Under the pieces are notes generated by a model that did not search any database, was not told where the DNA came from, and saw only the letters and a list, made by a program, of their open reading frames with translations. DNA of 64,000 nucleotides from Campylobacterota bacterium (GTDB lineage: Bacteria; Campylobacterota; Campylobacteria; Campylobacterales; Sulfurovaceae), in the NCBI GenBank assembly GCA_034721895.1, contig JAYEND010000099.1:521-64520 (forward strand), written 5' to 3'. Shown piece by piece: positions 8,720 through 11,837 of this stretch. Made by a program: the position numbers and the translations under genes. The number at the start of each line of letters is the position of its first letter. The stretch's first letter is position 1.

Positions 8720-9429
8720 AAATCTCAATCGCGCGATTTGACAAAGCACGAGACCCTCAAAGTGCCATAATCCCCTATGAGATTCCCAAAGGGATGACAC
8801 TGCTTCAGACACTTCAGCATATCAAAGGTACGATTGACCCGACACTTACCTTCAAGGCAGGCTGCCGAAGCGGTATCTGCGGCATCTGCTCTGTCCGTGT
8901 CAATGGCAGGGAAGAGCTTGCCTGCAGCTGCAAACCTGAAGAAGGCGATCTGATTGAACCTCTGCAATATCACGAAGTCCTGCGTGATCTTGTCGTAGAC
9001 AAAAACAAAGCCAAAGAAACCCTTAGAACTGCCACCGCCTGGCTCCACCAAAGCCAGCCGGCCACTATCACCATCGAAGAGGAAAAACGCACTGAGCTGC
9101 AAAGTGACTGCATCCTGTGTGACAGCTGCTACTCTGCCTGTCCGGTCTATGCCGTCAACCCTGACTTTCTGGGGCCTTTTGCTCTGACACGCGCCTATCG
9201 CTATACGGCAGACCAACGAGAGGGTGATATCAAAAGTACGATTGACAACATTCAAACCAACGGCGTGTGGGACTGTACCCTTTGCGGAGAGTGTACCGCC
9301 GTCTGCCCGCAGGGTATTGATCCCAAGATGGATATCACACTGTTACGCGGAACCAGCAGCCAATATGGATACAGCGATCCCAACTTCTCTTCGATGAATT
9401 TTGGCTTTGACCCCAGTGGTGGATTTTAG
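8716..9429 (+). CDS. succinate dehydrogenase/fumarate reductase iron-sulfur subunit
   Basis: 237 aa with CRSGICGICSV...AC (2Fe-2S), CILCDSCYSACP and CTLCGECTAVCP. Start overlaps the flavoprotein stop (ATGA). Confidence 0.9.
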   Translation: MKISIARFDKARDPQSAIIPYEIPKGMTLLQTLQHIKGTIDPTLTFKAGCRSGICGICSVRVNGREELACSCKPEEGDLIEPLQYHEVLRDLVVDKNKAKETLRTATAWLHQSQPATITIEEEKRTELQSDCILCDSCYSACPVYAVNPDFLGPFALTRAYRYTADQREGDIKSTIDNIQTNGVWDCTLCGECTAVCPQGIDPKMDITLLRGTSSQYGYSDPNFSSMNFGFDPSGGF

Positions 9430-9439
9430 GTGAGTCCTA

Positions 9440-10402
9440 TTATCTTTTTGGCAGGGGAGTACATCCGTTACCGATCTCTTTCCGTGTAGCTCTTATGATG
9501 GATCGTATCTCAGCGTCAGCCGTCGCAGCCTGTCCGAGCAGCCCCAATGCCTCACCTGATCTACCCGTACGGCACAGAAGGTCAGCCAGATTGTTGAGCG
9601 CAAGGGGATGCCCCGGTTCAAGAGATAAGAGCTTGCGATAGCTCTGTTCCGCCTCAGCCAGATGCTGTGAATGATAATGGGCATTGGCCAATGCAAAAAG
9701 AATATCCACATCCTTCGGCCAACGCAACAGGGCACTTTGATAAGCTATGATGGCTTCATCCATCATCCCTGTTTTTTCAAGCTCGTATGCAGAGTGCAGA
9801 AATGTTTTGGATGAAGCTGATGCCGGCAGATGACCCGGCGGCAGAAGCACAATTCCCCAATTACCGCTTCGTTTCCACAATGCCGCAAATGTCGCGATGG
9901 GCAATGCTTCGTTCGGTCGATCAGAAAAATGTATCAAAATCATTCGTTTTTTTCCATCATATCCTGTCACGGGTGCGTAGTGCCAAAGTGGATACCAGGA
10001 GTAACCGCGGTTTAGCAGCACAATGACGGGATGCTGCTTGCCCAGTTCGGAGAAAAGCGCATCAAGTGTTGGCTCCAAAGGATAGACAAGCAGGCCGCTG
10101 GCCCGTGCAGTGGCAGCCAGCTCTACCTGTAGCGTACCTCTTTTTGCAGGAATCAATGTCCGTCCGTCCAACTCCTTCCGTGATAAATAGGGGACATAGG
10201 ATGTTGTTGATTGCCAATACGAAGAAATCATCTCAATTGATGTTGAACCACACAGGTCTGAGCGCGGAGAGACAAAAGGGACTTTGATATTTGACGAAGA
10301 ATAATATTTACCTGAAGGCAAAGGCTCTTTCGGCGCACAACCGCTCGTTATGATCAAAGCAGATGATGCCAACAGGAAAGAGAGGTGGTAGCTTATTCCC
10401 AC
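9440..10402 (-). CDS. lipoprotein cysteine peptidase, C39-like, with C-terminal TPR repeats (PA2778-family-like)
   Basis: 320 aa. Lipobox LIITSGC, Cys motif SDLCGSTSIEMISSYW, His motif WHYAPVTGYD, and a TPR-like C-terminus (ANAHYHSQHLAEAEQSYRKLLSLEPGHPLALNNLA). Family name is from memory. Confidence 0.7.
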   Translation of the reverse strand: MGISYHLSFLLASSALIITSGCAPKEPLPSGKYYSSSNIKVPFVSPRSDLCGSTSIEMISSYWQSTTSYVPYLSRKELDGRTLIPAKRGTLQVELAATARASGLLVYPLEPTLDALFSELGKQHPVIVLLNRGYSWYPLWHYAPVTGYDGKKRMILIHFSDRPNEALPIATFAALWKRSGNWGIVLLPPGHLPASASSKTFLHSAYELEKTGMMDEAIIAYQSALLRWPKDVDILFALANAHYHSQHLAEAEQSYRKLLSLEPGHPLALNNLADLLCRTGRSGEALGLLGQAATADAEIRSIIRATRKEIGNGCTPLPKR

Positions 10403-10403
10403 G

Positions 10404-10793
10404 TTACCGGACAGAGCGGGTAAACTTAAAGACCTTTGTAAATCCGAGAATATCGGTAATCAGCAAGACTACAAAAACAAAAACAGCGGCACCGATCAAC
10501 GTACCGACAGCGCTGCTGCCGGCTGGCAATGTCTCGATTTGATAAGCGATCTCCGATGCCTCTTCATCCGTCATCGAAGCAACCCTCTGCTCGATCATGT
10601 TCTGATCGACATCCATCTGTTCCAATATTTTGGCTACATCATCACGTGCAGTAAATTGAATGACTTTCTCTTTTGAAGAGGCCGTCACCGGCCGTTCGAA
10701 AAGTACTCCCGTGGAAGCCATCTGTGCCCATGAAACCTGAGCAAACAGTGTTATGCTTAAAATGAGTGATAAAACAAGTTTTGAAACGTTCAT
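10404..10793 (-). CDS. small secreted protein with C-terminal TM anchor (PA2779-family-like)
   Basis: 129 aa. Signal peptide ...AQVSWA, an acidic middle region, and C-terminal VGTLIGAAVFVFVVLLITDILGFTKVFKF. Its stop is 1 nt from the peptidase start. Confidence 0.5.
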   Translation of the reverse strand: MNVSKLVLSLILSITLFAQVSWAQMASTGVLFERPVTASSKEKVIQFTARDDVAKILEQMDVDQNMIEQRVASMTDEEASEIAYQIETLPAGSSAVGTLIGAAVFVFVVLLITDILGFTKVFKFTRSVR

Positions 10794-10934
10794 AGGAATC
10801 CCTTTTTATTAATTTTTGATCTCTTTTAGTATTTCTGTTAATAGATTCTAAATGTCTTAAGGTTAAATACTCCTTATTGCTGCACCAAAGAATAACCGAA
10901 TTTTAATCCGAGGAGGCTCCGAACGAGTTCTCTT

Positions 10935-11837
10935 TTAGCAATAGCCACTTATGATAAAGTCGACAACTTTATCAATATAAGCATTATGCTTATTCTCTTT
11001 GGAGTAAACGATATAGAATTTACGTGTCATCTTATAGCCTCTGAGACGTGCCTCGAACAACTCTCCGTTTTGAACCTCATCAACAATAGCATGTTTTGAA
11101 ATGATCGAAACAACCGGTGTTTCAGCATCTTTCCTGCTTTTTTTGATCATCTGAAGCACTGCGGTTGTATTGCTCACTTCACTCAGCACATTGAAGCTTT
11201 TACATGAAACACCAAGCTCTTTAAAGACGTCTGAAATAATACGCTTCGTATGGCTTCCCTCTTCACGACAGATCCATTTGAAATCATAGAGATCTTCTGT
11301 CTTCAATGTCTTGGGGATCGGTGTATTACTGAAGACGACAAGTTCATCCTCTAACCACTCTCTGTAGATCATACTATCGTCCATAACAGGTGATTCGATC
11401 AATCCCACATCGAGTTTATGATCTTTGAGCTGCTGGATAATGACATCACTGGTTTCAATACTCAGGTTGATTTCGTTACTAATCGCTTCACCAATGGTAT
11501 TGAGGCACTTTCCCGGAATAACATAATTTCCAATGGTAAAGGAGGCTCCCAGACGAAAAATAATCTCTTTATTGATGATCTTCAGAATATCTCTCTCCGC
11601 ACTATGGATTGACTTTTCAAGTTCAGAAACAACTTTATAGAACTCCTCTCCTTTTTTAGTCAATTTAATACCATTTTTTTTTCTCTCAATTATTTTTGCC
11701 GAAAGATACTTCTCGATAAACTTGATCTGTTGTGTTACTGCCGGCTGCGAAACTCCGAGTTTGGCAGAAGCTTTGGAAAAACTCCGTTCCCGGACGACCG
11801 TAAGAAATGTTTCGAGTTTGATGAAATCCTTTAGCAT
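10935..11837 (-). CDS. LysR-family transcriptional regulator
   Basis: 300 aa. N-terminal wHTH (FLTVVRERSFSKASAKLGVSQPAVTQQIKFIEKYL) plus a substrate-binding domain. Very AT-rich. Confidence 0.9.
   Translation of the reverse strand: MLKDFIKLETFLTVVRERSFSKASAKLGVSQPAVTQQIKFIEKYLSAKIIERKKNGIKLTKKGEEFYKVVSELEKSIHSAERDILKIINKEIIFRLGASFTIGNYVIPGKCLNTIGEAISNEINLSIETSDVIIQQLKDHKLDVGLIESPVMDDSMIYREWLEDELVVFSNTPIPKTLKTEDLYDFKWICREEGSHTKRIISDVFKELGVSCKSFNVLSEVSNTTAVLQMIKKSRKDAETPVVSIISKHAIVDEVQNGELFEARLRGYKMTRKFYIVYSKENKHNAYIDKVVDFIISGYC

Follow-up and report, generated by a model that had tools for sequence, protein, structure and literature searches.

We analysed a window of 64,000 nucleotides from a contig (JAYEND010000099.1, positions 521 to 64,520 of the forward strand) of a Campylobacterota bacterium of the family Sulfurovaceae, whose genome (GCA_034721895.1) comprises 2.22 Mb and is 99.98% complete. 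All positions given below refer to this window. Two adjacent open reading frames (ORFs) on the minus strand are the subject of the present study, namely, a gene for a small protein of 129 aa (10404..10793) and, directly downstream, a gene for a cysteine peptidase lipoprotein of 320 aa (9440..10402). The small protein matches the NCBIfam model NF033919 (PA2779 family) with 101.7 bits and the Pfam domain DUF6627 (PF20332) with 81 bits, and the peptidase matches NF033920 (PA2778 family cysteine peptidase) with 217 bits (E = 2.8e-64, model positions 4-252 of 255) and Pfam Peptidase_C39_2 with 27.7 bits. All four scores lie above the curated cut-offs of 40, 27, 150 and 24 bits, respectively, thereby bearing out the initial annotation of the two genes as a pair of the PA2778/PA2779 type. 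Each protein displays the complete set of traits of its family. The peptidase has a lipobox Cys, a Cys and a His of catalytic type, a C-terminal tetratricopeptide repeat (TPR) region and a PA2779-family gene directly upstream, and its partner has a signal peptide (SWA/Q, the slash marking the predicted cleavage site), a PAGS hinge and a C-terminal helix with the motif ITDILGFT. Judged from their sequence, the two genes form a self-contained envelope module of the PA2779/PA2778 type in this Sulfurovum-group genome. The unit is a genuine copy of a widespread and catalogued two-gene module, and this copy adds little beyond another member.

The junction of the two genes (10400..10406) reads TAA-c-GTG, which confirms that the stop codon of the partner gene lies only 1 nt upstream of the peptidase start. 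The same 1-nt spacing is present in two Sulfurovum loci (L016 and L017). No evident Shine-Dalgarno sequence precedes the GTG in the junction sequence. Given the GTG start 1 nt after the partner stop and the lack of an obvious ribosome-binding site, translation of the peptidase is probably coupled and low-level, and the enzyme is probably made in much smaller amounts than its partner.

The conservation of the pair was investigated in 83 loci besides the window, of which 80 were fetched, two come from plasmids and one from a relative. The partner gene is located immediately upstream of the peptidase gene and on the same strand in 81 of them, and in the remaining two a gene runs off the contig end. 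The expectation that the pair would be syntenic in other genomes thus holds for all 81 loci in which both genes are visible, and these loci span Campylobacterota, Pseudomonadota, Thermodesulfobacteriota, Nitrospirota and Nitrospinota. A degenerate-pattern scan detected the peptidase motif in at least 596 species genomes, and the partner profile retrieved 4003 clusters (formed at 50% identity), of which 2509 have E ≤ 1e-10. An all-against-all clustering of the neighbouring genes in the 83 loci, in which we looked for a third conserved gene, returned only generic response regulators and ABC ATPases; a conserved ATP-binding cassette (ABC) exporter was not found among these neighbours. Nine beta- and gammaproteobacterial loci (L039, L053, L058, L063, L068, L074, L086, L089 and L093) share a lineage-specific neighbour of about 560 aa, a polytopic membrane protein whose gene is located on the opposite strand and converges on that of the peptidase.

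In the gene tree of the peptidase, the window sequence is placed in a clade of 13 sequences from Sulfurovaceae and Sulfurimonadaceae, which is supported by values of 100/100 and separated by a stem of 2.55 substitutions per site. The sequences of this Campylobacterota clade are 61-78% identical to the window peptidase, and homologues from other phyla reach at most 37%. Among the matches listed, the closest homologues belong to Sulfurovaceae (71-78% identity), and the pair has its nearest public relatives in entries with the label Sulfurovum. A second, very divergent lineage of Campylobacterales branches elsewhere in the tree; its representative from the same order but another family (L012:6344-7644) shares 26% identity with the window peptidase, retains the oxyanion Gln, and its pair is located between a hemE-like and a UbiD-like gene.

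The AlphaFold2 (AF2) model of the peptidase, which was calculated from an alignment of 79 sequences with the plasmid-collection sequences left out, has a mean predicted local distance difference test (pLDDT) score of 93.7 and a predicted template modelling (pTM) score of 0.87. It consists of a signal helix, a low-confidence tether of about 15 residues after Cys22, an alpha/beta domain (residues ~40-190) and seven TPR-type helices (residues 198-311). The lipoprotein signal peptide (residues 1-22; 10337..10402) ends in the lipobox ITSG-C22, whose Cys is invariant in all 79 relatives, and the motif predicts lipidation of this residue. In the C39-like papain-fold domain (9833..10285), which is supported by the Pfam and PDB profile matches, a helix begins at Cys51 (10250-10252), and His141 (9980-9982) is part of a strand. 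Cys51 (in SDLCGSTS), the triplet Trp140-His141-Tyr142, Gly147-Tyr148, Arg100 and Trp182 are likewise invariant in 79 of 79 relatives. The TPR domain (residues ~198-311; 9470..9811) comprises three TPR pairs and capping helices; its assignment rests on matches to many TPR models, including Pfam TPR_2, TPR_16 and TPR_19, on the AF2 helices and on Foldseek. The lipobox, the Cys and His motifs and the TPR repeats of the 320-aa protein had all been recognised beforehand.

The top 50 Foldseek hits of the full-length peptidase model in the PDB are all TPR proteins, which makes this fold search uninformative on the catalytic domain, and a sequence profile of the peptidase domain alone was therefore compared with the PDB. 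The best matches are 3erv (E = 5.5e-7), the double-glycine protease LahT150 (6mpz; 2e-4) and the peptidase domain of ComA (3k8u; 2.6e-3). In the alignment with ComA, the Gln, Cys and His of the family fall on chain residues 11, 17 and 96, which are the oxyanion Gln (Gln11) and the catalytic Cys17 and His96 of ComA. Cys51 and His141 hence align with C39 catalytic residues, in agreement with the previous designation of the protein as C39-like. A fold search of viral structures was uninformative.

The signal peptide of the partner (residues 1-23; 10725..10793) ends in QVSWA/QM and has a predicted cleavage site flanked by a conserved Ala at position -1 (76 of 78 partner proteins) and Thr at +5 (72 of 78). 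The AF2 model of the partner (mean pLDDT 70.7) shows the signal helix (residues 3-17), a disordered stretch, four short helices between residues 40 and 88, a loop (89-94; LPAGSS), a helix (95-116) and a short tail. Acidic residues prevail in the soluble part, the sequence of which contains 13 Asp/Glu versus 6 Lys/Arg. In the model, the P-A-G-S hinge (residues 90-93; 10515..10526), our candidate cleavage site, provides the sole loop that separates the last soluble helix (76-88) from the membrane helix, and it is highly conserved: Pro90 is found in 77, Ala91 in 76 and Gly92 in 73 of the 78 proteins, and position 93 is occupied by Gly (55), Ala (17) or Ser (4), i.e., by one of these three residues in 76 of 78. 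Double-glycine leaders tolerate G, A and S before the scissile bond. The C-terminal segment (residues 95-129; 10407..10511) carries the motif T-D-x-x-G-x-T, with Thr113 (68/78), Asp114 (70/78), Gly117 (69/78), Thr119 (73/78) and, further downstream, Phe122 (68/78), and ends in a tail of the type (K)VF(P)F(T)R. It comprises a hydrophobic helix of 22 residues followed by the tail TKVFKFTRSVR; the tail in the window reads FTKVFKFTRSVR. The basic residues after the helix suggest, according to the positive-inside rule, that the partner adopts an N-out/C-in topology. The sequence, the model and the conservation pattern accordingly agree with the initial description of a signal peptide, an acidic region and a C-terminal hydrophobic helix. 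A fold search with the partner model returned no match below E = 3.9. The partner is the only ORF in the genome in which P[AS]G[GAS] is followed by a C-terminal hydrophobic stretch, and its earlier nomination as candidate partner or substrate of the peptidase stands.

DUF6627 also occurs in fusion with an OmpA-family domain, in at least 170 clusters at 90% identity that make up a distinct subfamily, and the few taxon-labelled ones all belong to Desulfobacterales. The fusion proteins are composed of a signal peptide, DUF6627, a PAGG hinge, a TD..G.T helix, a basic linker and a C-terminal OmpA-family domain, which scored 65.5 and 39.7 bits (cut-off 27.2). With an N-terminal signal and a single membrane helix, the fusions would place the OmpA domain in the cytoplasm, although it is expected in the periplasm. 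Because a peptidoglycan-binding domain is expected there, either the topology or the role of the fusion helix is not as it seems. No such fusion was found in ten Desulfobacterota genomes with classical pairs. Several DUF6627 paralogues (up to four or five) are present in the Desulfobacterota genomes reached via the loci L032, L034, L029 and L061; these genomes encode more partners than the single fetched peptidase locus, and some of the paralogues show in-frame stops in the six-frame match.

From the sequences of both proteins we infer a processing mechanism to which we give an even chance of being correct: a lipid-anchored periplasmic peptidase of the double-glycine type would cleave its dedicated neighbour at the PAG(G/A/S) hinge beside the membrane. 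The product of the first gene would be exported via its Sec signal peptide and, after signal cleavage, would consist of an acidic four-helix ectodomain of about 65 residues, held at the inner membrane by the C-terminal hydrophobic helix and the short basic tail. The product of the second gene, presumably the scarcer of the two, would be a lipid-anchored periplasmic enzyme, in which the C39-like papain-fold domain with Cys51 and His141 is rigidly joined to the TPR domain. The latter may dock the helical ectodomain of the partner, and the peptidase would cut at the exposed Pro-Ala-Gly-(Gly/Ala/Ser) hinge right before the membrane helix. This cut is modelled on double-glycine C39 peptidases, which cleave after GG, GA and GS, and it would part the soluble ectodomain from the conserved membrane stub. 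The proposal of cleavage is based on the homology to C39 peptidases, the spectrum of Gly, Ala and Ser after the invariant Gly, and the position of the hinge as the only exposed loop by the helix. It is furthermore based on the one-to-one adjacency of the genes, the presence of a single such substrate in the genome, the weak GTG start and the expression in Pseudomonas stutzeri DSM4166, where the PA2779-family gene PSTAA_2481 is one of 39 genes that rank in the top 3% of expression (PMC10155442, Table 1). This holds in four conditions comprising rich and minimal media and exponential and stationary phase (PMC10155442), and such high transcription is consistent with a substrate that is abundant and an enzyme that is scarce.

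Several observations weigh against cleavage of the partner. The oxyanion-hole column (ComA Gln11) is occupied by Gln in 66 of the 79 relatives and by Pro in 12, all of which belong to the Campylobacterota clade; the window protein, with Pro46, shares this exchange with the 12 other clade members. Further clade-specific residues are located near the active site in columns 53, 54, 144 (P144) and 159 (F159), and together with the Pro and the long stem branch of the clade they indicate that the activity may be altered in this lineage. The column of ComA Asp112, the third catalytic residue of ComA, contains His158 in the window and Arg (45) or His (32) across the family. The position after the lipobox Cys (+2) is an Ala, and if this residue sends the lipoprotein to the outer membrane, its tether of about 15 residues looks too short for a site at the inner membrane. 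Simple shedding of the ectodomain leaves the strongly conserved intramembrane motif without an explanation. The OmpA fusions lack a PA2778-type gene within 6 kb in the two long contigs examined (L120:6001-6846 and L121:6001-6867), and the hinge and helix motifs of these peptidase-less proteins may serve a role that is independent of cleavage. Finally, our full-text literature searches returned only passing mentions of family members, namely, in a paper on bswR, next to which PA2779 is listed as hypothetical (PMC3985676), in a P. aeruginosa screen discussed below and in the promoter screen of P. stutzeri (PMC10155442), and no functional study.

Some of these findings would be easier to understand if the partner were an anchor or regulator that tethers, positions or inhibits the TPR-peptidase, with other envelope proteins or cell-wall peptides as the real substrates, much as in the NlpI-Prc and LbcA-CtpA systems. 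TPR domains commonly serve as adaptors, DUF6627-OmpA proteins retain the PAGG hinge and the helix motif without an adjacent peptidase, several DUF6627 paralogues coexist in Desulfobacterota genomes, and the conservation of the intramembrane motif points to a role inside the membrane. The papain/NlpC-like fold, with a weak profile match to the endoisopeptidase PeiR (E = 0.065), points in the same direction. We nevertheless regard such a role as rather unlikely. The strict one-to-one adjacency, with the partner gene upstream, is reminiscent of precursor-protease pairs, the residue spectrum of the hinge fits double-glycine sites, no other candidate substrate gene is conserved nearby, and the best structural-sequence relatives are double-glycine leader peptidases rather than cell-wall amidases. 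An improbable, more far-reaching scenario retains the cut at the hinge and adds a transfer reaction. PAGG, helix and basic tail would then constitute a sorting signal, and the ectodomain would be passed via a thioester with its new C-terminal Gly to peptidoglycan, a lipid or a protein, in place of water, by a sortase-like enzyme on a papain fold. Its tripartite layout mirrors the LPXTG and PEP-CTERM signals, each genome has a single enzyme with a single substrate, and a connection to the cell wall is hinted at by the peptidase-less loci in which DUF6627 is fused to an OmpA domain that binds peptidoglycan. The great abundance of the partner in P. stutzeri would also befit a structural envelope protein (PMC10155442). 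However, C39 enzymes are known as hydrolases, the OmpA domain of the fusions lies beyond the hydrophobic helix and thus renders the signal internal, and known sorting signals show a much lower conservation of their helix.

An entirely different interpretation comes from a TraDIS screen (sequencing of transposon insertion sites) of Pseudomonas aeruginosa, which listed PA2778 as a putative enzyme gene located upstream of a candidate immunity gene of the H1 type VI secretion system (T6SS; bioRxiv 10.1101/733030). The pair would then encode a T6SS toxin and its neighbouring immunity protein, for which we see hardly any chance. A homologue of TssC/VipB (PF05943) is absent from the genome, and the control search retrieved TssC in Escherichia coli. 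Moreover, the conserved neighbour is located upstream and is itself exported, and all 79 family members examined possess the lipoprotein Cys, which argues for an export of the family by Sec/Lol and not by a T6SS. The absence of TssC and the presence of a lipobox in every family member led us to reject an effector-immunity pair.

The cleavage mechanism remains our preferred reading, and it may be part of a broader scheme that we put forward as no better than a long shot. The pair would represent an unrecognised extracytoplasmic processing or sorting pathway of diderms, in which a lipid-anchored C39-like enzyme cuts an abundant, Sec-exported mini-protein between Pro-Ala-Gly and Gly near the membrane and, via the thioester, may link the ectodomain to an envelope acceptor such as the cell wall; the DUF6627 proteins that are fused to OmpA and lack a peptidase would be the non-covalent equivalent. 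If cleavage of the partner is correct, the pair would provide the first demonstrated case of a double-glycine peptidase of the C39 type acting on a membrane-tethered substrate in the periplasm, and thus a new step of envelope maturation. The pair is very widespread, and its partner gene belongs to the top 3% of expression in one Pseudomonas. Two new details, the natural clade without the oxyanion Gln and the fusions that link DUF6627 to a peptidoglycan-binding domain, are useful for the design of experiments.

The origin of the pair was investigated on the basis of composition and distribution. The initial annotation had described a G+C-rich islet and, from 60-nt samples of about 57% G+C in the peptidase gene, had suggested a foreign origin of this gene. 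Such windows do exist, but only 21% of the 60-nt windows of the gene reach 57% or more, and the gene as a whole has a G+C content of 0.495 in a genome of 0.433. This value corresponds to the 97th percentile of the genome ORFs, whereas the G+C content at third codon positions (GC3; 0.464) and the codon-usage distance rank at the 49th and 72nd percentile, respectively. The excess is located in the first and second codon positions and thus reflects the amino-acid composition. The partner gene (0.454) is average, and the adjacent sdhA (0.505) and sdhB (0.513) are richer in G+C than the peptidase gene. The contrast that suggested an islet arose because the gene of the LysR-type regulator upstream of the pair is a low outlier. 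GC3 and codon usage are ordinary, and we rejected the G+C island on the basis of the genome-wide percentiles of G+C, GC3 and codon usage; composition provides no evidence of foreign origin, and it is the distribution that fits mobility or loss.

True family matches were found in three of 41 relatives and, within the genus, in one of 14 genomes, i.e., the window genome only. In one congener (L116), sdhB directly abuts a LysR gene that is 84% identical to its equivalent in the window, without a pair between them, and in other Campylobacterota the pair is found in unrelated gene contexts. The presence in one of 14 genomes and the direct contact of sdhB and LysR in the congener are indicative of a cassette that behaves as gained or lost; the LysR gene, in view of its 84%-identical orthologue abutting sdhB, is resident and lies outside this cassette. 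A recent import as a foreign G+C-rich islet could be read from the 97th-percentile G+C content of the peptidase gene, the absence of the pair from the other 13 species of the genus and the empty site between sdhB and LysR in the congener. We consider it very doubtful, given the ordinary GC3 and codon usage, the more G+C-rich flanking sdhA and sdhB, the average partner gene, and the closest homologues in Sulfurovaceae within a Campylobacterota-only clade of 100/100 support. The position of the window sequence in this clade on a long stem suggests that any transfer is old or within the phylum; the pair would since have adapted to the composition of its host, or else the pattern would result from repeated loss.

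The LysR-type regulator gene upstream of the pair (10935-11837, minus strand) has a G+C content of 0.388 (7th percentile) and is the real compositional outlier. The spacer between this gene and the partner gene is A+T-rich and comprises 141 nt. It contains a promoter-like site (TTAACA-18-AAAAAT; 10812..10841, minus strand) with nine of 12 consensus matches, which is a weak candidate since the region contains about as many such sites as expected from shuffling. On the other side of the pair, only 10 nt separate the TAG stop codon of sdhB (9427-9429) from that of the convergent peptidase gene (TAA, 9440-9442, minus strand), and no terminator-like hairpin was found between them (9427-9442).

Among the known systems, the closest equivalent is the NF033920 and NF033919 pair, named after the P. 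aeruginosa PAO1 genes, with which the window pair shares the gene order, lipobox, Cys and His, TPR region, signal peptide, hinge and C-terminal helix. In comparison with the PA2778/PA2779 family at large, the window pair stands out by its place in a long-branch clade of Campylobacterota with Pro instead of the oxyanion Gln, and its partner has a PAGS hinge and a linker between hinge and helix that is four residues longer. The best sequence match with a solved structure is the putative C39-like peptidase 3ERV from Bacillus, which belongs to the same Pfam family (Peptidase_C39_2); it is uncharacterised and differs by the lack of a TPR domain and of a known paired DUF6627 gene. The peptidase domains of C39 exporters (ComA PEP, 3K8U; LahT150, 6MPZ; PCAT1, 4RY2) share the alignable papain-like signature Gln-x5-Cys...His, and the proposed substrate resembles theirs in an amphipathic helix followed by Gly-Gly/Ala/Ser. 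In contrast to these N-terminal domains of ABC exporters, the window peptidase is predicted to be a stand-alone extracytoplasmic lipoprotein fused to a TPR domain, lacks the oxyanion Gln and has His, or Arg in other members of the family, in the column of ComA Asp112. Its putative substrate would be Sec-exported and membrane-tethered, with the site near the C-terminus and not after an N-terminal leader.

The combination of a periplasmic protease with a TPR lipoprotein module is reminiscent of NlpI-Prc and LbcA-CtpA, in which TPR lipoprotein adaptors steer proteases to peptidoglycan hydrolases. In those systems, the TPR protein and the protease are separate, the enzymes are serine proteases and a small tethered partner is absent, whereas TPR domain and cysteine peptidase are fused in the window pair. 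Some Gram-negative bacteria possess single-substrate sortases, i.e., a cysteine enzyme encoded beside a substrate that ends in a motif, a hydrophobic helix and a basic tail. The C-terminus of the window partner, with PAGS, a 22-residue helix and a basic tail, resembles this LPXTG-type arrangement, as does the location of its gene beside that of a cysteine enzyme. The window peptidase, however, has a papain/C39-like fold and not the beta-barrel of sortases, and the helix of its partner is highly conserved.

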